DNA of 64,000 nucleotides from a virus (taxonomy: Duplodnaviria; Heunggongvirae; Uroviricota; Caudoviricetes): IMG/VR virus record IMGVR_UViG_2585427757_000006. The stretch is one strand, 5' to 3'. The notes under the pieces were generated by a model, which searched no databases, had not been told where the DNA came from, and worked only from the letters and a program-made list of their open reading frames with translations. How positions within the stretch are numbered: position 1 is the stretch's first letter; every line of letters begins with the position of its first letter. The position numbers were made by a program, and so were the translations under genes. Of this stretch, positions 10,622 through 61,285 are shown one piece after another.

Positions 10622-11188
10622 TTAGAGTGCGTATTGCGTTTTGTGCGGCTGCTTATTCAAGTCATGGCGATGCGTGAGCTCCCGCATCATGTCTTCAAGG
10701 CGACTCTTTGTGTCGTCGAGCTGGTCGGCCATTGCACCTAAAAGCTGGCGAACGGCCATCGGATCGTCGCTGTTTAGTGATGGCATTTTAGAACCTGCTT
10801 TAGAAGACATAAGGTTGATTGCAGACATCAACATCGTTAGAGAGGATTTAAGCCCGGCAATTTCACGATCTTTGCTGGCAATAATCGTCTCACTTTTGTT
10901 ACCGTCATCAGTTTCTTGAGTCTCGCTCACCATATCCAAAGTCGCTTGCAACTTATCAGCTCTCTCTTTTTCAGCAAGGTAATGAACACCGAAATGGTGT
11001 GCCAAAGCTACAATCTGAGTTGGCTCTTCAAAGGTGGAATTAAAATTAAGTATTGTAAACAGTCTCTCAAATATGGAAACGTCTTCTATTCCTCGAAGAA
11101 TGGCTAACATTTTGACCAGTTCATTAGCATCCATTTCTTCGAATAAGGCGTTTTGTTCATCAGCTATTGCTTTGCATTTCTCGCACAT
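10622..11188 (-). CDS. hypothetical protein
   Basis: 188-aa ORF preceded by motif aaacaagttgttttcttat and an SD. Confidence 0.45.
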   Translation of the reverse strand: MCEKCKAIADEQNALFEEMDANELVKMLAILRGIEDVSIFERLFTILNFNSTFEEPTQIVALAHHFGVHYLAEKERADKLQATLDMVSETQETDDGNKSETIIASKDREIAGLKSSLTMLMSAINLMSSKAGSKMPSLNSDDPMAVRQLLGAMADQLDDTKSRLEDMMRELTHRHDLNKQPHKTQYAL

Positions 11189-11327
11189 GTGTTTTCCTTA
11201 ATGCTTAAACAAGTTGTTTTCTTATTGGTTTTATTGTGATGTGGCATAAAAGGGGAGCAAGCTAAACGTAAAGGTGCAAACTCTCTATTTCGGTCAACGA
11301 AACACAAGGGCCATTTGGCCCTTGTCA

Positions 11328-11486
11328 TTAACACTTTGCTTTACGAACTAACGGATAAGCGAAGTAGATCGCCAAACCAATGAGGACGCCATCAGAAATG
11401 ACAGACATCATCTTTCCCGTAAAATCCACCAACACCGCCATCACCAGAAGAGCAATGACGATCACAAGCCGGAATCTCTCAAGCAT
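11328..11486 (-). CDS. small hydrophobic membrane protein, 52 aa
   Basis: MLERFRLVIVIALLVMAVLV; start overlaps upstream stop in a TAATG arrangement; below the 60-aa track cutoff. Confidence 0.4.
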   Translation of the reverse strand: MLERFRLVIVIALLVMAVLVDFTGKMMSVISDGVLIGLAIYFAYPLVRKAKC

Positions 11487-11911
11487 TAGAGATAAGCATC
11501 CAGTGACAACTGAAGCGCCTGGGCGATCTTTTTCAGTGCCTGCTCTTCTTGTTCACCAATGCCGTCCTGATCGGCAATATCAAGGCACAGACACAGAACA
11601 TCGACCGCCTCTGGAGTACCCGCAATATCAGACAGCTCACGAATAGCCTGTGCATTAGCAGAACGAGGGGACGCTTCGTAACGAGCACGGATATTGGCGC
11701 TCATTTGGGCAATTTCACCAGCAAACGGAGAAAACGCAGGCAGAGCTGCAATTGTCTTCTCAAGAATGGCAATTTCTTTTGCGTCACATGTGCCGTCGGC
11801 ATAGGAGATCATGTACGCGCCCCACACGGTGGCCTCAACCGCATCACGGTTCTCCATTTTTTTGACTTCGATAACTGCTTTACGAGTTTTCTTTTTGAAG
11901 AAACCTAACAT
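11486..11911 (-). CDS. TerB-like domain protein
   Basis: Two DG-x-E repeats (YADGTCDAKEIAIL and IADQDGIGEQEEQALKKIA) resembling tellurite-resistance TerB. Confidence 0.45.
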   Translation of the reverse strand: MLGFFKKKTRKAVIEVKKMENRDAVEATVWGAYMISYADGTCDAKEIAILEKTIAALPAFSPFAGEIAQMSANIRARYEASPRSANAQAIRELSDIAGTPEAVDVLCLCLDIADQDGIGEQEEQALKKIAQALQLSLDAYL

Positions 11912-12004
11912 GTGTTTTCCTTTTGTTATTTGTCAAAACAAGTTGTTTTCTAGTTAAATAAATTGCTTACGCAAAGACGGTCAATGCATATGTACTAACA
12001 ACCG

Positions 12005-12193
12005 TCAGAAATAACCAAGTACCGAACCGACTGGAAAAATAAAAATCCCAACTACACGAGCCAAGGTCATGCCAGCCTGAAACTGGAGATCGCCAGAGCA
12101 AACAAGTTTTATAATGTTCGATACCCAACCGGCGGCCATGAGGGCAAGAATTGCCAGCCAAATTTTTCCAAAGTGATTTGAAAACCAGTTCAT
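12005..12193 (-). CDS. small membrane protein
   Basis: 62-aa ORF with two hydrophobic segments. Confidence 0.35.
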   Translation of the reverse strand: MNWFSNHFGKIWLAILALMAAGWVSNIIKLVCSGDLQFQAGMTLARVVGIFIFPVGSVLGYF

Positions 12194-12202
12194 ACAACCG
12201 CC

Positions 12203-12697
12203 TTAGTCACAGCATGATCCTGAGTAACTGGATGAACTTGAGGTATCGCATCCACCGCCATCCCATCCAGAGTGACAGGACGCTCCACTGGAGTGGTGGT
12301 AATTGTCGTCGACGAAGGTGTGGTGGTGGATGAATCCGGCATCAAAAGGCTCTGACCGGCTGGAACGGCTACCGTCGCCAGTGAAACTATAATGAGAACG
12401 TAGGCCATTGGTTTCAGCCTCTTTCTTTGAAAATTTTCCATTCGAACTGTCCTTGTTGTTTTTCTCCTTCACTAAAGGCCGTGCATTTTTCGCTTCGCGT
12501 GAAGAACCAGAGGCAACAATCGCCCCCATGTTCGCAACAACTGACGCTTGATTATCTAAACGTTCATTCAGCAACCGAACGGTAGTCTCTAGTTCATCAA
12601 GGCGTGACATAACACGACCGCTAAATAATTCGGCCAAAATTTGACGTAAAGAACGAGGACGTTTAGTTACAGAAGTGAAATAGGTTTGACGTGCCAT
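12203..12697 (-). CDS. hypothetical protein
   Basis: 164-aa ORF, Ser/Gly/Cys-rich C-terminus. Confidence 0.4.
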   Translation of the reverse strand: MARQTYFTSVTKRPRSLRQILAELFSGRVMSRLDELETTVRLLNERLDNQASVVANMGAIVASGSSREAKNARPLVKEKNNKDSSNGKFSKKEAETNGLRSHYSFTGDGSRSSRSEPFDAGFIHHHTFVDDNYHHSSGASCHSGWDGGGCDTSSSSSYSGSCCD

Positions 12698-12845
12698 GTG
12701 GACTCCATCCAGTGTCAGAAAGAGTTGCGGCTGGCGATTGCCAGCCGCTTTTCTCGTTCCATCCTGGAACTGTGTCTTACCGACACATTGTCATCCTGAC
12801 GCCGATAAGATACATGATTTAAAATGATAGGTAAACACTTACTTA

Positions 12846-13436
12846 CTATTTGTTATAAACAAAACCAATATCTTTCTTGTGAGGCATATCTGCTGCTGAA
12901 AAAGCTGCGATCTTCGCGAGTCGATCACATATTTCATTTTCACGATGCCCGGCGTGACCTTTAACCCACTTCCAGCGAACATTATGTCGACTTGCGGCCT
13001 CATCCAGACGCTTCCACAGATCAACATTCTTTACCGGTTTTTTGTCAGAAGTCATCCATCCATTGCGTTTCCACCATTTCATCCACTGTGTCATGCCGTT
13101 TTTCAGATACTGGCTATCAGAGTGCAAAATAACGTTGCATGGATATTTCAAACGCTCCAGCCCGATAAGTGCCCCCATCATCTCCATGCGGTTATTGGTG
13201 GTGCTATGAAAACCATCTGAGAACTCGCGTTCCTCACCACGATACTGGAGAACGATACCGTAACCGCCCGGGCCACCCGGATTTTTAAGGCAAGAGCCAT
13301 CACTAAAGATTTTCACGGTTTTAAGCTGGGGATTGAACTCTACGACAGGCGTTGTGGGATTGGTGCGGGGGGAATTTTTGTTTTTGGCTTTTTTGCGAGT
13401 TTTTGCTTGCGATCGGGCTGGTGTCTTCGTCGTCAT
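12846..13436 (-). CDS. rnhA: ribonuclease H (RnhA-like)
   Basis: [34 protein letters not shown] motifs; start set at MTTKT with SD aggag; basic N-terminal extension. Confidence 0.85.
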
Positions 13437-14018
13437 ATAAACTCCTGAATCAAGCGCCGCGCCGATTTTTCCTCGCGCGTGCGCACACGCGTGCGTGTTA
13501 ATAATTATTAAAATAAACAAATTACTTCCCAGAACAGGTTTTTATAAACCTGAACTGAACGAACGAAGTGAGTGAAGTTCACCTCGAACGAAGTGAGAGG
13601 TTGTCTTTTCAGGTAATACTCTCCCAGGGAGGTGAGTATAAAAATCTCTCACCAACCTGGTCGTTTCATAACCTGAAAAGTTATGGTCTAAGTCTACTGC
13701 CAGCTTAGACTTGGGAAGTTATGGATGACAGCACCCCAGAACCGAGATCTTCCCACACTTTATGAAGGGGAGTACTGGATTCAACCTCTCGAAACACCCC
13801 AGACTCGACAATCATAAAGTGACCCTTGTCTCTGCTCACTTTGGTTCCCCCTTCCCCGACACCTAAACGGCACCAGTTCTACGCTGGTAGTGAGCTTTTT
13901 TAAACCTGACGCCAGTGACGCTTACCCCCACCCATCAGGTCGAGTCTCCAGTCTACGACTGGAAACTATCAGATCTTAGCACTTACAATTCACTTTATGA
14001 ATAGTTTGTACTTATCTA

Positions 14019-14273
14019 TCATTGTGATTGATTATTTTCTCTACCATGTAGTTGAACATTCAAGGCAAACACCTCATTGATCAACTCACCTAAAAGCTGT
14101 TCAACAAGTTCGCGATGCTCGCCAAGATGCAAGCACTTAATTGCCCATTCGTACAAGTTGAAAGCCTGCTCACGATCTTTCATCATTTCACGAGCCTGGG
14201 CCAGAAAATCGCTCTCTACGAGCGCAACGACATTAGTCGGGTATGACATGTTGGTTTCCTTAAAGTGGTTCAT
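14019..14273 (-). CDS. hypothetical protein
   Basis: 84-aa ORF. Confidence 0.35.
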   Translation of the reverse strand: MNHFKETNMSYPTNVVALVESDFLAQAREMMKDREQAFNLYEWAIKCLHLGEHRELVEQLLGELINEVFALNVQLHGRENNQSQ

Positions 14274-14434
14274 AAAATCGATTTTAAAGCGTCTGCGAAG
14301 GGGTTCTAGTGGATTCTGTAGTTATGTTCAGGTCTGGAGTCTCTGATACAAAACAGCCTTCTTCCGTATATTAATAATTAATATGTAGTTATTTATATAT
14401 ACAGAAGCAGGCTAATTACAGACACCAGAACAAA

Positions 14435-15028
14435 CTAAGCAGCCTTCTTTGATGGTCTTTTTTTCCTGATCACATTCGCAGGATCATACCCTCCCAGACT
14501 TTTCATGACGTCCAAAGGGATCTTGCTTATAGAGTGCCCAGCGTCCTGACAGAATCCTCGAAAAACAACGAGCATACTGCCACCCGGGTTGATGTTTACT
14601 TCTACCTGACCCAGATTTACGTCAGGCTCGACAAACGCTACGCGGCCACCAGACAGAATAATCGTCTCATTCGCACACTCTGTTGCACGCTCATACCACT
14701 TTGTATCTAGGGATTGAGGAATTAGCATCACTGTTGTACCCCCGCGAGCCTGCTCACGTATAGCCGCATCAATCCAGGGGTAGATTTTGGAGTAGGGTGG
14801 ATTGAGGAAGGCAATTGTACCTGGCTGTCCCCATTCAGATTTCAAAGCATCACGCTCAACGCCTATGAAATTAGGCAGCTTTGCATTGTCCTTGTTGCAG
14901 GCAACGTCAACATCAAATGTCACTCCAAGATAACGTTGAATGGCAGAAAACAGCCAGTCAGGTGTTCTCCAGAGGTCACGAAGAGAGTTGTCACGCTTTC
15001 GCTGTTTGATTTTTTCGGCTGCAATCAT
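14435..15028 (-). CDS. phage-type N6-adenine DNA methyltransferase (Dam-like)
   Basis: WRTPDWLF and FLNPPYS motifs characteristic of the phage N6A methylase family. Confidence 0.75.
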   Translation of the reverse strand: MIAAEKIKQRKRDNSLRDLWRTPDWLFSAIQRYLGVTFDVDVACNKDNAKLPNFIGVERDALKSEWGQPGTIAFLNPPYSKIYPWIDAAIREQARGGTTVMLIPQSLDTKWYERATECANETIILSGGRVAFVEPDVNLGQVEVNINPGGSMLVVFRGFCQDAGHSISKIPLDVMKSLGGYDPANVIRKKRPSKKAA

Positions 15029-15211
15029 CTTCTTTCTCGATAGGTAAGTAAATACCTATTTTTGCATTTGATTTTATGTCTGGCAATCAAATAAAACGCG
15101 CCAGAAATGCAAACGAGAAGCTCTCTGGCGCGTTTTTGTGGTGCTGGGTATGTGATTGACTTACCCAGTACTATAAAGCTCTCTATGGGCTTTATTTTAA
15201 GTAGGGGAACG

Positions 15212-16021
15212 TCATCCAATAGTGTACTCCGCGACAAACTTCTTAACGATCGGTGATTCTTCGTTCAATGTTAGATTTCCACCGTCTCTAACGGCAATTC
15301 CTGTCGCTGGAAATACAGCCATCATTTGCCCAGCCTGAGTTGACGCAGTATTAAGCGGATACGGTTTTTCTGGATTGCTCATTAAAGCAATCTTAATACT
15401 ATTACTTGTAGCCTTCTTTTCTGTGAGAAGGTGTCTCATGGAAATTACCGTGTAAACACTAATATCTGGACCTCCGCTAAACCAATTAAGAAGGTTTAAT
15501 ATCTTATCCTTTGCTTTGACAGGCGCGTTATCGTAAGCGTCTAAGAAAATATCTTTTTCTAAGCCCGCTTTATTGAAAAACGAATCATCTTTATCACTTA
15601 AAGTAAAACGAGGACCTCTTGCAGTACGAGCTTTTTTATTTGTATTGCTATCATTTGACTGTTGAACTTTTAATTCATCATTAACCTCAACACACTCTTC
15701 AACCTCAATAAATCCCAATTGTTCTGGCTCGTTTTCGGCAGCTTCAACACTTTCAGCGTTAATTACGTTTATAGGCTCATGCGCTAACTCCAACTCATTT
15801 AAAGCAGAGCTGAAATCACCTGCTTTTTCTTCATTGAACAGTTCTTCGGCAACATCATCAGAACTCATGGCTACGCCAGCATCTAGGCCGAGCAGCAGAT
15901 CGTCAATATCATCAGTATTTTCAACCTGTGCAGCTTTTTTTACTGGTTCATCAAGTGATTGCAACATGGCTGTCAGCTCGTCCAGATCAGCATTTGTCAT
16001 TACATTTTCAACCGAACTCAT
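15212..16021 (-). CDS. hypothetical protein with highly acidic N-terminal half
   Basis: 269-aa ORF; D/E-rich first 120 residues. Confidence 0.45.
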   Translation of the reverse strand: MSSVENVMTNADLDELTAMLQSLDEPVKKAAQVENTDDIDDLLLGLDAGVAMSSDDVAEELFNEEKAGDFSSALNELELAHEPINVINAESVEAAENEPEQLGFIEVEECVEVNDELKVQQSNDSNTNKKARTARGPRFTLSDKDDSFFNKAGLEKDIFLDAYDNAPVKAKDKILNLLNWFSGGPDISVYTVISMRHLLTEKKATSNSIKIALMSNPEKPYPLNTASTQAGQMMAVFPATGIAVRDGGNLTLNEESPIVKKFVAEYTIG

Positions 16022-46660: not shown

Positions 46661-47830
46661 TCACGTCTTAATAGTTTCTGCTACGTCGGCTAATATCGCT
46701 TCTAGTCGTTCTCCCTCTTCAGGTCTGAAGTAAAGAATGTTGGGGTTAAACCCGTAAAAGACAGTAACGTCAAGGTCTGGAAGATACTCCTTCCTGCCGA
46801 CCAAATCGGATGGCTTGTTTTTGTTGTTAAACAATGAAGTTGCCCGGCTGCCACACGTCAGCACATAGGTCGGACGCACCAGATTGATCTCTTCACGCAT
46901 AAAGTCGGTGAACTGGCCGATCTCGTCTTTGGTGTAGTCTTTTTCTTTGTCTTTAACCTTCTTGCAAACACCTGTGACATAGAGATCGCCCATGCGTAAA
47001 TCTCCAGCCGTCAATAGCTTGGCCTTAAAGTCGTCGTATCCGTTCTCCATAAAGTAACCGGTTCGAGCATCATTGCCGTTCGCATTGTCCAGAATGATCA
47101 TGATTTTCGGCTTAATACCAATGCTGGGGCGGATTAGTTCATCACCTAAGCCCATTTCAGCCGCCATCCGCGTCATGAGTACGTTAATTTCAGCCGAACG
47201 TTTGGGGTTCATCTCAAACGGACGTGAGGCTTTAACTGCGTCTATGACAAGGTTTCCCATCAATTCAGCCTGGTCGCGTAGGCGCTCTGGATCAGTTGCT
47301 GGCAGACTGCCTGGCTCGATGGATGCAAACGCCCCTACTTTTTGCAGCGATTCGCGCACTCGACTATTACAGGCACGTTTCTCGACAGCTTCTTCGAATT
47401 GCGCCAGTGACTCGAATTTGCCGCCAACTTTTTCTCGCGCTCTCATGATGGCTTGGCAGCCATTCTCAGAACACCCCTTCACAGCAGAGAAGGGCGCATA
47501 CAGCACCTGGCTGCCATCTTCAAGCGTGCGGATCTCGATTCGGTTAGATGACACGTTAACGTCTGGTGGCAATACGCGAATGCCATAGGTCAGCGCATCT
47601 TTAACCAGCCCCTGGTGTTTATCTTCGCCAAGAATAGTGAGAGCAGCAGCGAAAAACTCTGCGGGATAATGAGTTTTCAACCACATAGATTGATAACTGA
47701 TTAAGGAGTAAGCAACAGAGTGTGATTTGTTGAAGGCATACGCGCCGGATTTCTCAAACATATTCCAGATTTCTTCGGCTCGTTCGTGCGTCAGGCCATT
47801 GCTCTCTTCGACAACACCGGTAATTTTCAT
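46661..47830 (-). CDS. dnaE: DNA polymerase III alpha (DnaE-like) C-terminal fragment
   Basis: AYAFNKSHSVAYSLISYQSMWLKTHYPAEFFAAAL matches the DnaE finger region; own start codon overlapping the HNH gene stop. Confidence 0.75.
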   Translation of the reverse strand: MKITGVVEESNGLTHERAEEIWNMFEKSGAYAFNKSHSVAYSLISYQSMWLKTHYPAEFFAAALTILGEDKHQGLVKDALTYGIRVLPPDVNVSSNRIEIRTLEDGSQVLYAPFSAVKGCSENGCQAIMRAREKVGGKFESLAQFEEAVEKRACNSRVRESLQKVGAFASIEPGSLPATDPERLRDQAELMGNLVIDAVKASRPFEMNPKRSAEINVLMTRMAAEMGLGDELIRPSIGIKPKIMIILDNANGNDARTGYFMENGYDDFKAKLLTAGDLRMGDLYVTGVCKKVKDKEKDYTKDEIGQFTDFMREEINLVRPTYVLTCGSRATSLFNNKNKPSDLVGRKEYLPDLDVTVFYGFNPNILYFRPEEGERLEAILADVAETIKT

Positions 47831-48561
47831 GCAGTCACCTCATCAATCTTCACGAACTCATCCCCATTGGAGGCCAGCCAGTTCCGTTGGCGCTCCCAGC
47901 TCCATATCTCTTCACGCATTTCACTATGCAGGCGAATGTGGGCGTCTTCTGGAAGTGCTACAAGATTCCCAGGGGCGTTATCTATCGTATCGCGGTTAAT
48001 ATGGTGGACATGTTCATCGTCACGTAGCTCCCGACCGAGACGTTCTTTCGCTATCAATCGATGAACGTATTCGTATTGCGAAACGCCATTGTTACCAACC
48101 AGCTGCATCATGTAGCCGTTGGTTTTTACGATGATGCCACCTTTGTAGTTGTTCGCTTCTTCTCCGATCTTTCCGCGTTTGGCAGCCGCCAGCTTTTCCT
48201 TCGTCTCCGCGCGGATTGTTCTGCCGGTTAGCTTTTTCGAAACGGTGGCCACTCGCTCATCGATATCAGCACGCAGACCGGCATTCCACGAGGTTTTCCC
48301 ATACATAGGGTTGCCAGTGCCAGTCCGGGCTTCGGAGAGACGCTTCATACGTTCGTCATTATTTTTGTTTTTGCCACGATTCCAGGCTGGGGTAGCGGAG
48401 ATCCGCGCGCTTCCGCGCCTGATCCCCCATTTGGCTAATAAGCGGTCAATATTTGCCTTGCTGCAACCAGCTTCGGCGGCAATGTCTTCTTTTCTCATCA
48501 GGTCAACCATGTAACGCTGACGTAACCATTCTTCTGTGATTTTGTACTTCGTACTCGGCAT
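47827..48561 (-). CDS. HNH homing endonuclease with NUMOD-like repeats
   Basis: EHVHHINRDTIDNAPGNLVALPEDAHIRLH HNH motif; NPMYGKTSWNAG repeats; own promoter-proximal motif. Confidence 0.8.
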   Translation of the reverse strand: MPSTKYKITEEWLRQRYMVDLMRKEDIAAEAGCSKANIDRLLAKWGIRRGSARISATPAWNRGKNKNNDERMKRLSEARTGTGNPMYGKTSWNAGLRADIDERVATVSKKLTGRTIRAETKEKLAAAKRGKIGEEANNYKGGIIVKTNGYMMQLVGNNGVSQYEYVHRLIAKERLGRELRDDEHVHHINRDTIDNAPGNLVALPEDAHIRLHSEMREEIWSWERQRNWLASNGDEFVKIDEVTA

Positions 48562-48609: not shown

Positions 48610-50973
48610 TCAAATATCGAAGCTCGTTATGTCGGCATTTATTGCCATTGCTTCGGCATAAGTGCGACGCTCACCATCAGCACAAAGTAGGCGTGCTGCT
48701 TTATGGATTTTTCTCGTAGAACCATCATCCAGTGACACTGTCACCCAGCCTTCCTCCGCTCGCTTAATGAAGTCGCCGCCAATGGATTTCATTTTCTCCA
48801 TATCTTTTTTCCCGATCGCTTTCCTGACCGAGTCTGCTTCCGCCATTGAGAACCCCGCCAAGATTCGCGTAGCAGCCATGATCTGTTCCTGATAAATCAG
48901 AACTCCGTTTGTGTCGCGAGAGATGTCGTCCAGCATTGGGTGTAAGGAATGTGGGGCCATGAAGCCTTTGGCCACGGACACATAATCGTCCAACATGCCG
49001 GATTGAATCGGGCCAGGTCGGAAGAGCGCAGTTGTAGCGACGACCGTTTTAAAGCTCATTGGCTCAATTCCACCACCTAAATCTTTAAGCAGCTTGCGCA
49101 TTGGGCCTGATTCAAGCTGGAATACGCCCTGTGTATACCCTGCAGCAAAACCATCCAGCACCTTGCGATCTTCAAGAGAAATGGCATCAAGATTGATATC
49201 TTCACCTGTGTTCTCTTTTATGTAGCGTTTTGCACTATCGAGCAAATCGAGAGTTGCCAGGCCAAGCACGTCCAGCTTAATTAGGCCCATAGCCTCGCAG
49301 TAACGCTTGTCAAATGCGATACAACGCGCGTCACCACGGCGTTCAACCGGTGTACGTTCTGTCAGAGGAACACCTGCTACGATCATCCCTGCCGCATGTC
49401 TACCAAAGCCACGCATAAGGCTTTGTAACTTGCAGGCTGCATTGAATGCATCAGGATATTTTGTTGCGTATTTGTCGAGACTTGCCAGTTGTTCGCGCAG
49501 CTCTTCCAATGGAAGGCTATCATCCTCGACGTTCTTCAGTTCTTTTGATACCGCCATATCTGCGGACTCCACACCATAAATACGAGCGGTGTCACGTAGT
49601 GCAGAGGCTGCGCCCAGGTAGGTGAAGTTCGGAATGCCTGCAACGTAATCTTCGCCGTAGCGTTCATTCAGATACTCGATCACCTCATGGCGACGTGCCT
49701 GGCTGAAGTCCAAGTCCGCATCCGGCAAGTCGAGACGCTCAGGGTTGATGAAACGCTCAAACAGAAGACCGTGACGGATTGGGTCGACGTTGGTTATGCC
49801 TATGCACCACGCCACCAGAGAACCGGCAGAGGAACCACGACCAGGCCCAACGGGAATGCCAGTTTCACGACTATGATTCATCAGATCGCGCACCATCAGG
49901 AAGTAACCACAGAATCCCAGGCGAGTCAGCGTGTCCATTTCGTACTTTAGCCGCTCAACATAAACCCTGTTCTCAGAAGCAGGTGGTGTGTATCCAAACT
50001 CTTTTGTGGTAAGACGTTTACGCAGCCCTGCAACAGCCAGTTTCATCAGCGTTGCAGGTTCGTCGTCTGCCATCTTGGGCAGTGCTGGTGGCAATTCATG
50101 CCAGCGCCATGTGCAGGCATCGATAATGGAGTCCTGCGTTGTTGAGGCCATTGCAGCTGTTACCGGCACATCCATGCGAACGGAGAAGGCTTTAAGCGCC
50201 TCAAGGAGATGGCGACGACCATTGATGGCGTTATCTCGCTGGTGGGGGATACGCAGACGATGCGGCTGGTCGATTTTTATGTTGTTCGTAACCATGTGCG
50301 CAATGTCTTTAATGTCTGCATCGTCGATCGATTCGTAATAAGCGGGATAGAACGCCACTGGCTCTATTTTCAATGCGCTGGCGACTTTCATCGCCCGGAC
50401 GTTAATCTGGTCGTAGAATGGGGTAGGGTGCGGATAAACCACACTATAGAAGTTGTCTTTTCCACCCGCTGTAATCAGTGTGCTTATGATTTTTGCAAAA
50501 TCGTTGCGTTGGAACACGCTACCGATGTCGGAAGTAAGCAGGATGATGTTGCCTTTGGCATATGTAGAAACCAACTGTTCGAGCGAGAGACGCGGCACAA
50601 AGTAGAACTGTTCTCGTGTGTTGGCCACCGTCATTAGTTCGCAGATGTCGCGATATCCTTGCTCATTTTTAATTAGAGCGGTAAACGAGTAGTTACGTCC
50701 CCGCTCTAATGATTCCATACATCTCATAGATTCTTTAGCAAGTTTAGCCCGGTGCTCGTATGTGGGATCATCAACAATGTTTAGTTTCACACCACAAATA
50801 ACCGCCATGTCGTCACCAGCGGCACGTTGTAGTGGAATAACGCTCGCAATATTCATGCTATCTGCTGAAATTACAGCGGTGTAGCCAGCTTCTCTGGCAA
50901 TCTTCACCGCGTTTTCAGCTTTTAGAGCCGACTCCCCAAGTGAGAAGTCAGTTCGAACCATCAGTGCCTTCAT
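48610..50973 (-). CDS. dnaE: DNA polymerase III alpha (DnaE-like) N-terminal fragment (PHP and polymerase core)
   Basis: GIPVGPGRGSSAGSLVAWCIGIT, DADLDF, KLDVLGLATLD, ALFRPGP; homology ends 44 codons before the stop. Confidence 0.8.
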   Translation of the reverse strand: MKALMVRTDFSLGESALKAENAVKIAREAGYTAVISADSMNIASVIPLQRAAGDDMAVICGVKLNIVDDPTYEHRAKLAKESMRCMESLERGRNYSFTALIKNEQGYRDICELMTVANTREQFYFVPRLSLEQLVSTYAKGNIILLTSDIGSVFQRNDFAKIISTLITAGGKDNFYSVVYPHPTPFYDQINVRAMKVASALKIEPVAFYPAYYESIDDADIKDIAHMVTNNIKIDQPHRLRIPHQRDNAINGRRHLLEALKAFSVRMDVPVTAAMASTTQDSIIDACTWRWHELPPALPKMADDEPATLMKLAVAGLRKRLTTKEFGYTPPASENRVYVERLKYEMDTLTRLGFCGYFLMVRDLMNHSRETGIPVGPGRGSSAGSLVAWCIGITNVDPIRHGLLFERFINPERLDLPDADLDFSQARRHEVIEYLNERYGEDYVAGIPNFTYLGAASALRDTARIYGVESADMAVSKELKNVEDDSLPLEELREQLASLDKYATKYPDAFNAACKLQSLMRGFGRHAAGMIVAGVPLTERTPVERRGDARCIAFDKRYCEAMGLIKLDVLGLATLDLLDSAKRYIKENTGEDINLDAISLEDRKVLDGFAAGYTQGVFQLESGPMRKLLKDLGGGIEPMSFKTVVATTALFRPGPIQSGMLDDYVSVAKGFMAPHSLHPMLDDISRDTNGVLIYQEQIMAATRILAGFSMAEADSVRKAIGKKDMEKMKSIGGDFIKRAEEGWVTVSLDDGSTRKIHKAARLLCADGERRTYAEAMAINADITSFDI

Positions 50974-55154: not shown

Positions 55155-55541
55155 ATGTCTGACAACAAGATTGAATTTATAGAAAGTCGCTATGCTGCTT
55201 TTATCGCAGGGCTGATTGAATCCTCACCTATGAGTCAGGCCCAAATAGCCAGACTTATTGGTTATAAAAATGCCAACAACCTTTCTTTAATTAAAAGTGG
55301 CAAAATTCCTTTGCCTATCGATAAGGTTCGTCCGTTGGCGCTGGCGCTGGGTATTGAGCCAAGTCGTCTTATGATGATGGTGCTGGAAGAACGCCAACCT
55401 GAACTCGCAGCATTTTTATACAAAGAAGGCACCGCTCCTCTTAACGAGGACGAAAAACAGGTTCTTGCTGCATATAACGAGCGATTCGGTAAAGAGAAAG
55501 GCGCATCACAAAAGGTTGTTGAGGCTATAAAGTCTCTATGA
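55155..55541 (+). CDS. helix-turn-helix transcriptional regulator (XRE-like)
   Basis: MSQAQIARLIGYKNANNLSLIKSGK HTH; one of few plus-strand genes, convergent with the recombinase. Confidence 0.6.
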   Translation: MSDNKIEFIESRYAAFIAGLIESSPMSQAQIARLIGYKNANNLSLIKSGKIPLPIDKVRPLALALGIEPSRLMMMVLEERQPELAAFLYKEGTAPLNEDEKQVLAAYNERFGKEKGASQKVVEAIKSL

Positions 55542-56639
55542 AAAATTTACACGAATAAGCTCTGTTGATAGACGATCTCCCTTAAATTTGTGGTCAATTT
55601 CGTCTAAATCCGGTTGCTCTACGATTGATGCGATGTACGTCGAGAAACTTTCTAAGGCGTCTCGCATCTCGTCCATATAATCGTGCCGGTCGTAGACCCG
55701 ATCTATCCCCTCAAGACTGTGGTTCATGATTTTACGTGATACCTCCTGGCTTATGCCTAATGCTGGGAAGTAACTACGCGCAGTACGGCGCAAATCTCGG
55801 GGTGTAAATGGCTCAAGCTCCATCAGTTCTGGTCGTTCCAGAATACGACGTAATGCCTGGGCTATTGCCACTTTAGACATAGGAAGGTCTTTCCCGATTT
55901 TTTTATTCGAAGGCACGAGCCACTGGCTGTCTTTACCATATTCGAACAACTCTTCAATACAAGTGCGCATTAATGAGCTTAAAGGCAGAGAATGCTCACG
56001 GGCAGATTTGTTCCTCTTGCCTTGATTCCAAACCCCACGCTTAAGATTGAACTCACTTTTTTTAGCCCGCAGTACTTCGTCAGGTCGTCTTGCGGATACA
56101 AGACATAGCCTGGCCGCCCATTTTGTACCAGCACACACATTGAAGTAGTCCCATATATTCCAGAACACCCATACCTCTGCGTCGGTCAGCTTCCGCTCGC
56201 GAGGTGTGGGCTTTGCGCCACCGGCAACTTTGTTTAGTGACATATCGTTTAACGGTGACACGTCTATCATCCCCTGGAAGGCGCACCAGCTAAGGAACTG
56301 CTTCATCAGAGAGAAAACGCGGCGGCCCATAACAATTTTGCCATCCAGTATTAGTGGGTTGACCAGTTGGTTCACCATGAACCTATTAATGTCACTTACT
56401 TTTACATCGGCAATGTGCGGCAAAACATGTATCAAAATACAATGAACAGCGATCTCTGGCCGACGTCTGGTTATCAGCAGAGATAAGCGAGTGAATAACA
56501 TGAATGCGTCCGAGAATCTCATGTCATTGCTGACCTGGGAGATCATAACGGCCTGCATTTGAGATGCTCTTTCGAGATACTCTATCGCCTCTTTTGAGGT
56601 GTTCTCCGCAGCGCGTGCTCTGTCAAAGCTATTTTTCAT
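55536..56639 (-). CDS. tyrosine site-specific recombinase
   Basis: C-terminal R...H-x-x-R...Y pattern: LRRTARSYF, HSLEGIDRVYDRHDY. Confidence 0.75.
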   Translation of the reverse strand: MKNSFDRARAAENTSKEAIEYLERASQMQAVMISQVSNDMRFSDAFMLFTRLSLLITRRRPEIAVHCILIHVLPHIADVKVSDINRFMVNQLVNPLILDGKIVMGRRVFSLMKQFLSWCAFQGMIDVSPLNDMSLNKVAGGAKPTPRERKLTDAEVWVFWNIWDYFNVCAGTKWAARLCLVSARRPDEVLRAKKSEFNLKRGVWNQGKRNKSAREHSLPLSSLMRTCIEELFEYGKDSQWLVPSNKKIGKDLPMSKVAIAQALRRILERPELMELEPFTPRDLRRTARSYFPALGISQEVSRKIMNHSLEGIDRVYDRHDYMDEMRDALESFSTYIASIVEQPDLDEIDHKFKGDRLSTELIRVNFS

Positions 56640-56737
56640 ATGACAATCACCGAGTTACGCCGATTCACTGTATAAGTAAACAGTATATTAGGCATAGATT
56701 CTTATAGGATCAAGAGTAAAAGTAACTCATTTTCAGT

Positions 56738-56770
56738 AATGATTCCATACATAGTAGGTATGGAATCATT
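56738..56770. other. lox/dif-like recombination site candidate: perfect 13-bp inverted repeats around a 7-bp spacer
   Basis: aatgattccatac-atagtag-gtatggaatcatt, 100 bp upstream of the tyrosine recombinase start. Confidence 0.5.
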
Positions 56771-56889
56771 GTGGGCCTTTTTTATAAAATCTGTGATTCT
56801 TCTCAGGATAAATTATCTAAACTAAAAATTGTGTTTTGTGTTGGCATCTGCTTGAATAGACGCATGTTTATTCAGATATGGAATAATCA

Positions 56890-57426
56890 GTGAACAACCA
56901 AATTCATTGGGACTACCCATTCTCAGAAGAATTCGGCAGTGGGATGGTACACAGACAATTCACTGTGGGAAGCACTATTTATGCCGTTGGGTTTGAACAA
57001 ATATTGACGATGGATGATTTCACACGTAAGGGAGTTGATATCCTAAATGTACATCCAACATTCCGGTTTCCTCTGAGTGGTGTATGGGGAGTGATTTTTG
57101 ACGAAATTGACCCTGTAGAAATGGATTTCAAAGGATTTCGGCATATCCAACATCAAGGCTTGGCAGGTGGTCAAGTGCTTTTGAATGTTGCAAGTATAAT
57201 CTTTGACCATTATACTGTTTGTAACGCAGGAGCTTATGTCTTCTCCGCCGCAGACGACCATCAGCATTTACGCAGAACTGACTTGGTTGACATTTACTGT
57301 AAGATACTAGGTCTAAATGGAAAACGTAAAAGTAGATTGTTCGCCAATGGTTTTCCTGGATGGGAGGCATACTGTGATGTACCAACAGGAGGAAGAGGCT
57401 ATGTCGTCACGACTGAAAGTTATTAA
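56890..57426 (+). CDS. hypothetical protein, GTG start
   Basis: 178-aa ORF; no clear SD. Confidence 0.35.
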   Translation: MNNQIHWDYPFSEEFGSGMVHRQFTVGSTIYAVGFEQILTMDDFTRKGVDILNVHPTFRFPLSGVWGVIFDEIDPVEMDFKGFRHIQHQGLAGGQVLLNVASIIFDHYTVCNAGAYVFSAADDHQHLRRTDLVDIYCKILGLNGKRKSRLFANGFPGWEAYCDVPTGGRGYVVTTESY

Positions 57427-57628
57427 TTATTACCCCACCTCTGCAGAACGTTTGAGCCTTGAAATGGGCGAAAGACTACAGAAAGCTGCTGGTCAGGATT
57501 TAAAGAACAAGTTGGGTTCAGGGGAAATTAAACTGATTAACGGTAAATATGTAGGTGAAAGCCTGAAAGTTAATAGCACCTCTATGCTAAAAGCGCGGTT
57601 GCGTAAAGCGTATATCCCCGCTAAATGA
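57401..57628 (+). CDS. hypothetical small protein
   Basis: 75-aa ORF starting MSSRLKV with SD aggagg; overlaps previous ORF in another frame. Confidence 0.4.
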   Translation: MSSRLKVINYYPTSAERLSLEMGERLQKAAGQDLKNKLGSGEIKLINGKYVGESLKVNSTSMLKARLRKAYIPAK

Positions 57629-57630
57629 AA

Positions 57631-57656
57631 AGGCCTATATGGGCCTTTTCATTTTT
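57631..57656. terminator. bidirectional rho-independent terminator between convergent genes
   Basis: aggcc-tatat-ggcct hairpin flanked by A-run and T-run. Confidence 0.6.
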
Positions 57657-57900
57657 ATAGTGTACTCACCAGCGCCGCAAATTCCGTATACCCCCCAATA
57701 TGCTCTCCATGTATGAATATCTGAGGTATGGTATCCACTGGTTTACCAACCAGGTTGCTCAACGTTTCTTTGTTGATCCCCGCAGATGTAATATCTATAT
57801 ACTCATAATCACCGTAGCCATGTCCCTTTAGTTGCTTCGCCAACTCGACCGCACGTTTGCAGTATGAGCAGTTATCTCGTCCGTAGATAGTGATCGTCAT
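57655..57900 (-). CDS. glutaredoxin (NrdH/NrdC-like redoxin)
   Basis: CSYC active site, TIPQIFI, GG motif; 81 aa. Confidence 0.8.
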   Translation of the reverse strand: MTITIYGRDNCSYCKRAVELAKQLKGHGYGDYEYIDITSAGINKETLSNLVGKPVDTIPQIFIHGEHIGGYTEFAALVSTL

Positions 57901-58073
57901 AACTTAACAAATACCTTTATAAATATTGATTCGAACATATCAGACTATACTACAAACAGATTTTTTTGATAAGTATGTAGTAACTTATTGATTGACTAGT
58001 AAACAATTGAAGTGATTACGACAATAGATTACAGTAAGGATTGCCTTGAAATGTACATTTTATAGAGGTTTTA

Positions 58074-58982
58074 ATGATTGGTAAGTTGTCTGATTCTTTG
58101 ATTGAAAATAAATACAACGAATTTAGAGAAGAAATATCTTTACTTTTTGACTATTTAAATCAGATAAATGATACAACAAAGAAAAATATAAAACGTCTTC
58201 TTAAAGAAGTGGAGTATGCACAAAATCCAGATACTATTATTAATATTAATGAAACTATTAAGATTAAGTGTGGCACAACGTTAGCTCGCCATTTATGTTC
58301 AAACCCATATACAGGTTCAACATTAGAGATAGGTAACAGCGCCATTGATTTAGAAGAAAAGATAAGATTGTGTAATACTTTGAAAAATAAACAATATCAG
58401 TGGGTTATTACTGAAGCCTATGAGTTACTGGAAGACTATATTGAGGCAATATATGTCTATACTGTATGTGTTCGAAATGATTTATGGTCCTCAAGTGATT
58501 TTGGTAAGGTTGAAGATGATGAAATTGGGAAAAGGGAAGTTTATTACAGATTATTAAAAGCAAAAAGTAACCCATCGAAAAAAATAACTAAAATTTTCAG
58601 AAATAAAATACCTGGCTTCAAAGAGATAGAAACAAACAACAAGATTGGCAAAAACTATCGCTTTAACATCAAGCTAATTGAACTACTAAGACATACAATA
58701 GTACACAATAGTGGACGATTCAATGATACAGAAAAATTTATAAATAAGGTTTTAGATGAATCTGAAATAAACGGTAAGAAAAGAGTTATTGGAGAAAGAG
58801 CTGTTAGAAGTTACATTACTAAAGTGCAAGAAGATGATATTGTGATGCTCTTAGAAAGACCATCTGAAATTTTAGGTTCTTTTGGTGGGTATTTTAACAG
58901 AGCAAAATTTTTACTAAGTGATATTTTAGAATACTCACTAATCATTAAAGAAGAACTAAAATCATATCTAGGCAATCATTAA
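58074..58982 (+). CDS. AT-rich hypothetical protein with HEPN-like R-x4-H motif; candidate abortive-infection protein
   Basis: 302-aa ORF visibly AT-rich versus its neighbours; LLRHTIVHNSG; strong terminator downstream. Confidence 0.45.
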   Translation: MIGKLSDSLIENKYNEFREEISLLFDYLNQINDTTKKNIKRLLKEVEYAQNPDTIININETIKIKCGTTLARHLCSNPYTGSTLEIGNSAIDLEEKIRLCNTLKNKQYQWVITEAYELLEDYIEAIYVYTVCVRNDLWSSSDFGKVEDDEIGKREVYYRLLKAKSNPSKKITKIFRNKIPGFKEIETNNKIGKNYRFNIKLIELLRHTIVHNSGRFNDTEKFINKVLDESEINGKKRVIGERAVRSYITKVQEDDIVMLLERPSEILGSFGGYFNRAKFLLSDILEYSLIIKEELKSYLGNH

Positions 58983-58987
58983 CAAAA

Positions 58988-59013
58988 AAGGGGCCGAAGC
59001 CCCTTTGGATTTT
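58988..59013. terminator. bidirectional rho-independent terminator
   Basis: aggggc-cgaa-gcccct hairpin flanked by A6 and T-rich runs; sits between the plus-strand gene and the minus-strand tRNA cluster. Confidence 0.7.
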
Positions 59014-59160
59014 GCGCTTAAAAAAGTGTTGCTAGGATGTTAGCAAGCTATGGTTAAGAACGTCTGCCGTAATTGTCTATCACAGCGTTGAGCGGTCTGG
59101 TTTATGTTAGCGGAGTCTTAATCTGGGTGATTAAAAGGCCAAACCGCTCAACGCTGTGTC

Positions 59161-59247
59161 TGGCGGAGAGTAATGGAATCGAACCATCATCGCTTGCGCA
59201 ATGGGACGGTTTTCAAGACCGCTTGAGCACCATGCTCCCTACTCTCC
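59161..59247 (-). tRNA. tRNA-Ser(UGA), type II with long variable arm, CCA encoded
   Basis: Acceptor ggagagt/actctcc, anticodon loop cttgaaa, T-loop ttcgatt; D-loop unusually short. Confidence 0.6.
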
Positions 59248-59471
59248 GGCCGTTGTGGTGGCCGGTACTGAATCTCCGGCATACGGTGCAGCCAATTAGG
59301 ACTACGGACGATCACCGCTCGCGAAAGGGAAGATTTGCGGCCGCATTTCCCTAACATCCAAGAAAGCTATCGCATCAGTCTGCGAATCCACCACAACGGT
59401 AAGATCACTACCTTTCGACCAGTCATTGTGCACATGAACGACGATTAACCGTAATGATCTTATCGTTGTAT

Positions 59472-59547
59472 TGGTGCCGGTTAGCGGACTCGAACCGCTG
59501 ACATCCTGCTTACAAGGCAGGCGCTCTACCAACTGAGCTAAACCGGC
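59472..59547 (-). tRNA. tRNA-Thr(UGU), CCA encoded
   Basis: gccggtttagctcagttggtagagc D-arm, anticodon loop cttgtaa, T-loop ttcgagt. Confidence 0.75.
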
Positions 59548-59551
59548 AATT

Positions 59552-59638
59552 TGGTGGGGAGTGATGGAGTCGAACCACCCGAGTCGCAATGACAGTAGAT
59601 TTACAGTCTACCCCGCTGCCCCTACGGACTAACTCCCC
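59552..59638 (-). tRNA. tRNA-Tyr(GUA), long variable arm, CCA encoded
   Basis: Acceptor ggggagt/actcccc, anticodon stem gtaga/tctac with loop ctgtaaa, T-loop ttcgact. Confidence 0.65.
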
Positions 59639-59643
59639 TAAAT

Positions 59644-59718
59644 TGGCGATGGTGGGTGGATTCGAACCACCGACCAGTTGGTTAACAGCCAACTGCTCTA
59701 CCGCTGAGCTACACCATC
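59644..59718 (-). tRNA. tRNA-Asn(GUU), CCA encoded
   Basis: Acceptor gatggtg/caccatc, D-arm gctcagcggtagagc, anticodon loop ctgttaa, T-loop ttcgaat. Confidence 0.75.
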
Positions 59719-60470
59719 AATTCAGCACTGCCAGTATTTATTACTCAACAGTGCCAATCGCGACGGTTTAGTTTCTGCCAGGAAACGCACCGCTACTTGC
59801 ACTTTTCGTTTGTGCCAGACGCTTTCGACTTCGCTCAATAGTAGAAGGCAAAATCTTTAAGTAGATGATGTTTCTGAGGACAGCACCTACTTTGTAATTT
59901 ATACAATGTGATGTATGGAATCATTTGTTGTGAAAACAGGCACCAATGGCAACAGTGGTTAAACCTACACAACAATCCTGTCTTCACAACGTTGAGGCCA
60001 CTACTCCGATTGAATGTTTGCCCAACATGTTACATATCAACGCTCGCCGGTATCTCTGTGAATAGAACCTTAGAATTGATAAAAATGTAATGGCCTCAAC
60101 GTTGTGTGCTGGCTAACCATACCAGCCGGGCTACGTCGCCGCTTTTTAACCCAGTATAAACGACATAATTGAACAAAATGACGTAACAGGATGGGCGGTC
60201 AGTGGCTAAGAATCCGGGAGTCATATGGAGTTGAAAATATACCAACCGCCCATTCTGTTCCCTCCTGCGTTCTGCAATCACACTCGCTCAGTGTGTCCCA
60301 TTTCGGTAACGAGGCTGGAAACTGACCTCGCTGGTGTTTGGCTTATTAGGCTACTGCCAGATAGACTTCTTCGTTTGCACTTGTATTTAAGTTCAAACAG
60401 TCGCGTCTCAACGAAAACAAAGTCATCTTATACATAAAAGATAAGTAAGTAAATACTTATCAATATGTTT

Positions 60471-60761
60471 TTATTCGGTTGTGACTTTTTTGATCAAGGC
60501 CACTCTACGACTAGGTGTTCTTGTAATGGTGGCAGTGAATCGTTTCGCTTGGATAGTAATGGTTTCGTTCTCCTTAAGTTGCCCGTAGCGAGTTTCCACC
60601 AGGGTGCCAAGACGCCACAGACCATCATCGATACGTTTATGACTAGCAAATTTAATCAGCAACAGTTTTACGACTAACTGACCTACGTAAAAGGCGAATG
60701 CGACTCCGGCCGCTAAGAAATAGGTGGCCAACCACCATTCCCAAGAAGTTAAATTGCTCAT
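60471..60761 (-). CDS. membrane protein, N-terminal transmembrane helix
   Basis: 96-aa ORF; WWLATYFLAAGVAFAFYVG. Confidence 0.4.
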   Translation of the reverse strand: MSNLTSWEWWLATYFLAAGVAFAFYVGQLVVKLLLIKFASHKRIDDGLWRLGTLVETRYGQLKENETITIQAKRFTATITRTPSRRVALIKKVTTE

Positions 60762-60910
60762 TTTTTCACCTTTGTTTCATGAACTACCCGATACACACGC
60801 TTTCCGATGCACAGTGTTTTGGTTTTAAGTTCCTGCTTAATTAAATCACGACAGATGCCGAAGCCGATAAGGAAGCCACCCATAAAAGCTAATGAGATGT
60901 ATGGAATCAT
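60758..60910 (-). CDS. small membrane protein, 50 aa
   Basis: MIPYISLAFMGGFLIGFGIC; SD aggag; stop overlaps next start (ATGA); below track cutoff. Confidence 0.4.
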   Translation of the reverse strand: MIPYISLAFMGGFLIGFGICRDLIKQELKTKTLCIGKRVYRVVHETKVKK

Positions 60911-61122
60911 TTTAACACTCCTGATTCTACTAATTGCTGTAGCAATACTTTCCCTTTATCAGTTAACTGGTAGTTGGCCGAACACCACGTTTCAGAAACG
61001 TTTGCAACCAACCCTAAACGCTCTAACTTAGCTCGCGTTTTAGGCTTCCAGTACTCAGGGAACTCCGGCCACTTACTGATTTCATGAAGCGTTTCCTTCT
61101 CCCGTTTACTTAATACGATCAT
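60907..61122 (-). CDS. hypothetical protein
   Basis: 71-aa ORF, overlapping starts and stops with neighbours. Confidence 0.4.
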   Translation of the reverse strand: MIVLSKREKETLHEISKWPEFPEYWKPKTRAKLERLGLVANVSETWCSANYQLTDKGKVLLQQLVESGVLK

Positions 61123-61285
61123 CCTTAATCTCCTTCAGGGTGTTGGTTATTTCTACAATGCGATAAATACGACCGCGTCTTTCTATAACACCGCTTTTAA
61201 TGTAGTCATTGATGCAACTGGACATCACCACAATACCTATGAAAAAACCAACTGCTAAAAATGCAATCATCCAGCCGAGCATCAT
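61106..61285 (-). CDS. small membrane protein, 59 aa
   Basis: MMLGWMIAFLAVGFFIGIVVM; start overlaps ligase stop; below track cutoff. Confidence 0.35.
   Translation of the reverse strand: MMLGWMIAFLAVGFFIGIVVMSSCINDYIKSGVIERRGRIYRIVEITNTLKEIKDDRIK

Follow-up and report, generated by a model that had tools for sequence, protein, structure and literature searches.

A probable Cre/loxP-like recombinase and crossover site in SSU5-type phage-plasmids, with conserved single-arm copies of the site

What is the function of a perfect lox-like inverted repeat next to the tyrosine recombinase gene of a phage, and why do single copies of its arm recur at a distance of kilobases? The question is raised by a 64,000-nucleotide stretch of Caudoviricetes DNA (IMG/VR record IMGVR_UViG_2585427757_000006), which is called the window below. 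The window is an SSU5/pHCM2/pMT1-type phage-plasmid whose nearest records are Escherichia phage CMS-2020a, Cyrano (pLF82) and PhiR41_1. An initial annotation, made from the sequence of the window alone, read the repeat as the cognate core site of the recombinase and the single arms as secondary sites that delimit an exchangeable cassette. Comparison with relatives strongly supports the first of these proposals; the second is left unsupported by the cargo breakpoints, the spacers and the absence of fusions. The two features at the center of the question are the following.

56738-56770, no strand assigned: full site; left arm 56738-56750 AATGATTCCATAC, spacer 56751-56757 ATAGTAG, right arm 56758-56770 GTATGGAATCATT
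55536-56639, minus strand: tyrosine recombinase gene (annotated 'integrase'), 367 aa; Pfam PF00589 at 2.9e-10

The sequence bears out the 13-7-13 arrangement upstream of the recombinase gene. The two 13-bp arms are perfect inverted copies of each other around a 7-bp AT-rich spacer, and the repeat starts 98 bp from the recombinase ATG (56639). The exact 13-mer is present in five copies in the window against ~0.002 expected by chance (128,000 positions / 4^13), which, together with conservation throughout the family, excludes a chance repeat. A search of related elements, which the initial annotation had suggested, found the repeat in 79 of 79 loci encoding recombinase relatives (56-100% identity), in each case ~100 bp upstream of the recombinase gene; its arms are all but invariant and its spacer is 7 bp long. 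There is exactly one full site per contig in 101 IMG/VR contigs and one in the complete Cyrano genome.

The relation between site and protein can be followed into more distant relatives (recombinases of 44-62% identity, examined together with their contigs). These lineages were found solely via the protein database; an IMG/VR search with the recombinase protein alignment gave no additional recombinase lineages. In a Nissabacter phage-plasmid with a recombinase of 60% identity the arms are unchanged. At 44-50% identity the repeat reads (A/G)TGACTCCAGAC-N7-GTCTGGAGTCA(T/C) and is located 17-130 bp upstream of the gene. Carriers of the TGACTCCAGAC-7-GTCTGGAGTCA form are phage-plasmids of Xenorhabdus and Providencia, an Erwinia plasmid, a 508-kb Pantoea megaplasmid and a 723-kb Rahnella plasmid, and Photorhabdus has an intermediate arm form. 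Two positions have changed jointly in both arms of the TGACTCCAGAC clade, and the spacer there is still 7 bp long and AT-rich (roughly TTWWTAG). All relatives have an arm geometry of 11/14-7-11/14, which is that of lox, FRT and dif-type core sites. The repeat also persists in replicons that share no neighboring genes, including some that lack the helix-turn-helix (HTH) gene convergent with the recombinase gene. Site specificity tracks the recombinase, with the same arms down to 56-60% identity and both arms switched at 44-50%. Because the arms co-vary with the recombinase clade across unrelated replicons, we assign the repeat to the recombinase; it is very probably the crossover site of this adjacent enzyme, in the manner of Cre/loxP.

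Spacers are constant inside a lineage and differ among lineages: ATAGTAG occupies 108 of 109 sites of the E. coli type, and TTAATAG, CTACCAA and CTTACAA are found in others. Such lineage-specific spacers would be expected to stop co-resident lineages from recombining with one another. In one case the spacer is inverted between two elements that are 99.8% identical over 5.7 kb, namely PhiR41_1 (locus L002, 9686-9692) and locus L042, with CTACTAT versus ATAGTAG, and this inversion shows that the site is dynamic. It is the single flip among the 109 E. coli-lineage sites, and another occurs in Buttiauxella-type elements. We do not take the flips as proof of recombinase action, since hairpin template-switching accounts for them equally well. 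The palindrome of L002 and L042 is longer than elsewhere, with 17-bp arms (CAGTAATGATTCCATAC). To the right of the repeat, flanks that are otherwise unrelated (56771-56795 in the window and its equivalents) have 5-9 variable bases, often a run of T6-8, and an (A/T)A(A/T)TCTG-like motif 16-24 bases past the repeat; this fixed-distance pattern may be an accessory element such as a bend, an IHF-type site or part of a promoter.

The protein encoded next to the site has the sequence features of a tyrosine recombinase. Among 28 relatives down to 24% identity, R185, the D282-L283-R284-R285 stretch and Y316 do not vary, and K211 and H307 are each kept in 90% or more; the His-II position is occupied by R281. 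An AlphaFold model (pLDDT 84.8) has a two-domain fold of core-binding and catalytic domains, in which a short helical N-terminus replaces the arm-binding domain of the lambda type. The best structural matches of the model are lambda Int 75-356, Tn1549 Int, Xer proteins and IntI; a phmmer search of the PDB matched no solved structure, Cre included. The recombinase is distantly related to P4-type integrases. Its putative promoter and the convergent neighbor are as follows.

56666-56713, minus strand: putative recombinase promoter; -35 TTGATC (56708-56713), 17-nt spacer, -10 TAATAT (56685-56690)
55155-55541, plus strand: gene for a 128-aa HTH protein, convergent with the recombinase gene and overlapping its 3' end

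The promoter was read from the sequence and scores 8/12, which is under the promoter-scan threshold. Directly after the -10 hexamer, with one base in common, is a LexA-box-like sequence, CACTGTATAAGTAAACAGTA (56666-56685), whose CTGT-N8-ACAG core is kept in the E. coli, Kluyvera-type and Klebsiella lineages and is absent from the distant clades; it suggests SOS-controlled expression of the recombinase. The HTH gene corresponds to CYRAN_45 of Cyrano, a 'putative repressor' that is expressed in the lysogen (PMC9928086). The repeat does not require it: plain plasmids retain the repeat although no such gene adjoins their recombinase gene.

Three single-arm copies, here called half-sites, complete the set of five exact 13-mers.

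50708-50723, plus strand: half-site A, AATGATTCCATACATC; inside a DNA polymerase III alpha-like open reading frame (ORF; 48610-50973, minus strand), ~250 nt from its start; left-arm orientation
59910-59925, minus strand: half-site C, AATGATTCCATACATC; intergenic, just past the tRNA cluster; right-arm orientation
60895-60910, minus strand: half-site D, AATGATTCCATACATC; start codon and first codons (MIPYI) of a 50-aa membrane-protein gene, 60758-60910

Two of them had been recognized in the initial annotation as a 17-mer, GATGTATGGAATCATTT, at 59910-59926 and 60895-60911, and both are present, with exact 13-mers at 59913-59925 and 60899-60911. The latter does overlap the start codon of the 50-aa ORF (60758-60910, minus strand), as had been claimed, and this ORF matches PHROG 6302 at 1.4e-36. 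The remaining 13-mer (50708-50720), which is in the opposite orientation, had been overlooked; this copy, half-site A, has 20 bp (AATGATTCCATACATCTCAT) in common with the copy at 60895-60911. The complete 108-kb Cyrano genome contains the equivalent five copies only, all of them inside 9.2 kb around the recombinase gene. Half-sites A, C and D are kept as ATGATTCCATACAT(C) across the whole ATGATTCCATAC clade, including loci L166 and L170, and no half-sites are present in the flanks examined in the TGACTCCAGAC clade. Half-site A, found in 63 loci, encodes C-M-E-S-L; in 28 distinct sequences 4 of the 5 wobble positions of the motif never vary, versus 0 of 30 beside it. For half-site C, column identity is 0.95 in the 16-nt motif versus 0.53 in the flanks (28 unique sequences). 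The spacing between C and D is always ~1.0 kb where both are present, and orientation follows a rule: every copy, on either side of the full site, points towards it. In these alignments single arms A, C and D are under selection as DNA, and they are functional elements.

Other readings of the half-sites were considered and rejected. No degenerate second arm is conserved beside them. The N-termini of MIPYI-type small ORFs do not explain the repeats, as a ribosome-binding site and a conserved ORF accompany D only, A being antisense to a gene and C non-coding. A genome-wide operator set does not agree with just five copies in Cyrano, and phage-repressor operators of the P1 C1 type do not agree with a cluster of this size, with at least two copies in coding sequence and with a repeat that is independent of the HTH neighbor. 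In most non-E. coli lineages an extra single arm, GATGTATGGAATCA, is located inside the recombinase gene (D-V-W-N-Q) and points to the full site (L007, 10485-10497; L170, 10607-10617; L079, 10401-10413); in the window, 56022-56033, it has degenerated to TTGATTCCAAAC. The 50-aa ORF has an apparent paralog of 59 aa at 61106-61285, also on the minus strand. Both would be small membrane proteins with a transmembrane helix followed by G(K/R)R(V/I)YR(V/I)V, and the recombinase-arm motif starts only the 50-aa one.

We propose that each 13-bp arm would be bound by one recombinase monomer and that strands would be exchanged across the AT-rich 7-bp spacer, in the way known from loxP, FRT and dif. The Cre/loxP system of P1 serves both multimer resolution and the circularization or resolution of replicated phage DNA. 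For a plasmid-borne prophage the most likely role would be plasmid multimer resolution, with circularization or resolution of replicated phage DNA as a possible further role, and chromosomal integration of the element would be improbable. Among 5,426 complete E. coli genomes the recombinase/site element is present in 248, and all 250 occurrences are plasmid-borne and none chromosomal. The Cyrano record has no second annotated site-specific recombinase, and its sole other junction-resolving entry is a RuvC-type resolvase. Multimer resolution is the best supported role because the element is always a plasmid, because this is the sole annotated site-specific recombinase in Cyrano and because there is one site per genome; plasmid maintenance with a single site per replicon is the arrangement expected of a multimer-resolution system. 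The same protein would also bind half-sites A, C and D, which selection maintains in one clade; their candidate roles are accessory, regulatory or DNA-organizing, and not those of cassette boundaries. The comparisons establish the anatomy of the site, its conservation and co-variation with the recombinase, the selection on the half-sites and the restriction to plasmids; arm binding, catalysis and the resolution function are all inferred here from sequence, and we consider the whole explanation, a core site with multimer resolution and single arms as extra binding sites, to be probable though well short of certain.

Several observations weigh against this explanation. Recombinase activity is assumed, since the His-II position is occupied by arginine. 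The LexA-type box suits a damage-induced function better than a housekeeping resolvase, and the compensatory changes in the arms are also consistent with preservation of a hairpin. Simple resolution does not account for conserved half-sites kilobases away, some of them in coding genes. The sharing of cargo across lineages also maps poorly to a crossover in the repeat: cross-lineage pairs are 76% identical in the left flank and 93-95% in the right flank, but they are not clean evidence of a crossover inside the repeat, since high identity begins 60-100 bp rightward, in gene bodies.

To the right of the repeat is the region that the initial annotation took for a cassette.

56771-59909, no strand assigned: hypervariable accessory region; 178-aa and 103-aa ORFs, glutaredoxin gene, 302-aa AT-rich gene, tRNA-Ser/Thr/Tyr/Asn

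The content reported for this interval is correct: the glutaredoxin gene is present, the AT-rich gene encodes 302 aa and the tRNA cluster has four genes. In the proposed check for presence/absence polymorphism of the segment 56770-59910, the version of the window is found in only 4 of 248 E. coli plasmids. The cargo between the repeat and half-site C has 35 configurations in 65 loci, the shortest being 1,179 bp, and most database alignments end exactly at 56770. In Yersinia pestis pMT1 (L082, NZ_CP045146.1) the complete caf1R-caf1M-caf1A-caf1 operon for the F1 capsule (10864-15992) stands directly right of the repeat (10203-10235). At the same spot PhiR41_1 (L002, 9673-15594) has a caf-like chaperone-usher fimbrial operon, followed at its far end by a lone half-site and then a fragment of a 'mobile element protein' gene. 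Other cargo includes PhoH and Ail/Lom genes, and that of Xenorhabdus comprises colicin-type DNase/immunity genes and toxin-antitoxin pairs. The repeat is the fixed left edge of the main accessory-gene hotspot. CYRAN_43, which adjoins the repeat on its right, has an expression level 723-fold over background in the Cyrano lysogen (PMC9928086), as expected of a moron hotspot.

Could the recombinase work like an integron integrase, excising and inserting the DNA bounded by the full site and a single-armed secondary site and so exchanging cargo such as fimbrial or capsule operons? The hypervariable region begins right of the repeat, and a LexA-like box is common to the recombinase promoter and those of integron integrases. 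If the full site recombined with a single-armed site carried by a circle, the products would again include a complete site, plus a half-site in right-arm orientation, which is the orientation observed. The best support comes from PhiR41_1, where the fimbrial operon is exactly between the repeat and the lone half-site, whose flanks are unlike those of C and D. However, C and D are fixed backbone features at constant spacing and form no arrays, half-site A is inside an essential-looking polymerase gene, and the right-hand boundaries of the cargo miss the single arms. The cargo is mosaic, and its several internal breaks (ahead of the glutaredoxin gene, between this gene and the tRNAs, and in the tRNA cluster) are all off the half-sites; modules common to several lineages end near the glutaredoxin gene. 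In pMT1 the replaced segment extends from the right edge of the repeat to 43 bp past the position of C, so that the caf island ends without a half-site and C itself is deleted. The 7 bp beside the half-site arms match the full-site spacer only at AT(C), 2-3 of 7 bp, and therefore provide no crossover homology with the full site. Right of the repeat there are never more than two half-sites, with fewer in some elements such as pMT1 and PhiR41_1, none of the genomes examined has extra half-sites between cargo modules, and patterns for fusions of the repeat with C or D ('empty sites') gave 0 matches in IMG/VR. In view of the mosaic breakpoints, the end of the pMT1 island, the spacer mismatch and the lack of extra half-sites and of fusions, a cassette delimited by the half-sites is very unlikely. 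The sharp left boundary is expected in any case, because no constrained element separates the repeat and the promoter from the variable region.

A purely regulatory system is quite unlikely as well. According to this explanation the recombinase-like protein, or another factor, binds the repeat and the half-sites and controls transcription, by autoregulating its own gene or acting on replication genes, without strand exchange, which would suit the substituted His-II, the position of the repeat 24 bp upstream of the putative -35 in the window (17-50 bp from the ATG in Pantoea and Nissabacter relatives) and the half-sites located in, or at the starts of, genes of one long leftward transcription unit. 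Against it stand the catalytic residues listed above, with R185, R284 and Y316 invariant across the family, the constant length of the AT-rich spacer with its 20-bp centre-to-centre spacing of the arms, which is the signature of a crossover site, and the confinement of the five copies to 10 kb without overlap with recognizable promoters. That the repeat is an attP-like site for chromosomal integration of the phage-plasmid seems highly improbable. The 'integrase' annotation, the distant P4-type kinship and the occurrence of a few relatives on contigs of 0.4-0.9 Mb would agree with it, but the large contigs that were inspected proved to be records of megaplasmids in which the repeat is intact, no arm-binding domain is seen in the recombinase model, and neither the exclusively plasmid-borne E. 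coli occurrences nor the single intact site in each of the 101 IMG/VR contigs fits integration. Equally hard to credit is a nucleic-acid hairpin (a terminator, processing site or cruciform) that is not a protein site. A terminator scan flags the repeat on the plus strand, a single strand folds at -11.3 kcal/mol (z = -5.2), the arm changes between clades are compensatory and many right flanks have a T-run. Yet this run starts 5-9 nt past the stem and is missing in many relatives, the arms are invariant inside each clade with no compensatory drift whereas the loop varies, and unpaired single arms are conserved on their own. An intrinsic terminator in particular was rejected on the AT-rich stem (4 GC pairs of 15), the offset and non-universal T-run and the conservation of the sequence itself. 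No known RNA family is present at the repeat, as Rfam matched nothing besides the tRNAs, and a replication origin or terminus was dismissed in the absence of a GC-skew switch at this point.

Among the closest known systems, the preferred reading of the repeat as a core site for multimer resolution has a counterpart in Cre/loxP of P1, and likewise in Flp/FRT of the yeast 2-micron plasmid. Shared features are a two-domain tyrosine recombinase of a plasmid prophage, perfect 13-bp inverted arms, a short AT-rich asymmetric spacer and a site near the gene, one per genome, with an expected role in multimer resolution or circularization. The differences are that the recombinase has no detectable sequence relation to Cre (phmmer, PDB), which is a weak structural match only, that the spacer is 7 bp and not 8, that His-II is Arg, that a LexA-like box is present, that selected single-arm copies are found kilobases away and that activity is predicted here. 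TnpI/IRS of Tn4430 and Tn5401 also has extra motif copies, as accessory direct repeats and, in Tn5401, at the transposon ends, with regulatory or architectural roles. It resembles the present system in that the recognition motif forms an inverted pair at the crossover core and has extra copies elsewhere; however, most TnpI accessory copies are within ~100 bp of the core and not 1-6 kb off, and the carrier here is a phage-plasmid, not a transposon. The integron system (IntI, attI x attC) similarly combines a recombinase gene with a LexA-type box beside the primary site and highly variable accessory genes beyond it, but the present elements have no attC-like folded sites and no cassette arrays, the edges of the cargo are off the secondary sites, and whole operons and tRNA genes are part of the cargo. 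The sfx sites of the Rci shufflon (IncI plasmids) resemble the half-sites in having a single conserved arm; they have, however, a common 7-bp spacer and flank inverting segments, whereas the spacers differ here, and no inversion of the Rci/sfx type was seen, gene order and orientation being constant in ~80 loci.

For the half-sites another parallel is XerCD/dif. Karaboja and colleagues reportedly described in 2021 XerD-binding half-sites (XDS) in the terminus region of Bacillus subtilis, and these single arms are presumed to act without recombination. Both systems have a full crossover site and dispersed single-arm sites for the same tyrosine recombinase nearby. In contrast to XerCD, a single plasmid-encoded recombinase with palindromic arms replaces the heterodimer, the arms are not dif-like and the half-sites are partly in coding sequence; an SMC or FtsK link is not known. 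A speculative and somewhat unlikely proposal is that the recombinase has a second job independent of recombination, in which the full site and the inward-pointing arms A, E (the copy in its own gene in other lineages), C and D would organize or regulate a ~10-kb replication/accessory region after SOS induction, as a plasmid-scale analog of XerD at XDS, or else that one-armed sites capture foreign operons such as the Y. pestis caf1 F1-capsule locus.

Relatives of the recombinase and its site are present on 840 PLSDB plasmids from Klebsiella, Escherichia, Enterobacter, Yersinia, Salmonella and others. The searched literature on SSU5, pHCM2, pMT1, integrase and multimer resolution contained no account of the recombinase or the site, and the arm sequences were also not found there. 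The Cre/loxP-like pair, widespread in plasmids and phage-plasmids of the Enterobacterales, has thus not been described before. SSU5/pHCM2/pMT1-type phage-plasmids are common and include plasmids of Klebsiella, Salmonella and Y. pestis, and identification of the site provides them with a testable maintenance function. Cyrano, a ciprofloxacin-inducible phage with ~5.5 copies per cell (PMC9928086), belongs to the same group of elements. The module may also be a new orthogonal recombinase/target pair with two natural specificities, for ATGATTCCATAC and TGACTCCAGAC arms, and the repeat is a fixed landmark for a hotspot that carries virulence and accessory cargo. The selected single arms in coding genes are a puzzling feature that could expose a function of a tyrosine recombinase other than recombination.

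Some minor features of the surrounding sequence are also recorded here. Within the conserved non-coding stretch between half-sites C and D there is another inverted repeat, cacaacgttgaggccac / gtggcctcaacgttgtg, at 59986-60002 and 60093-60109, whose first arm (59986-60002) is the point where pMT1 homology resumes past the caf island. The 302-aa gene (58074-58982) is in a kilobase of 29.5% GC with surroundings of ~45% and has the look of AT-rich DNA acquired recently. Its PHROG match is 35492 (unknown function), and neither Pfam nor PADLOC gave a match, the cargo genes being likewise without defense annotation; the initial suggestion of a HEPN protein was based on the R-x4-H motif in LLRHTIVHN. 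The polymerase III alpha-like gene that contains half-site A is split into ORFs of 787 aa (48610-50973) and 389 aa (46661-47830) by a 244-aa ORF on the minus strand (47827-48561), which has an HNH endonuclease motif (HVHHINRD...N...H) and, from its sequence, looks like a free-standing homing endonuclease insertion. The polymerase gene is uninterrupted in Cyrano, and in a Nissabacter relative it is similarly split.

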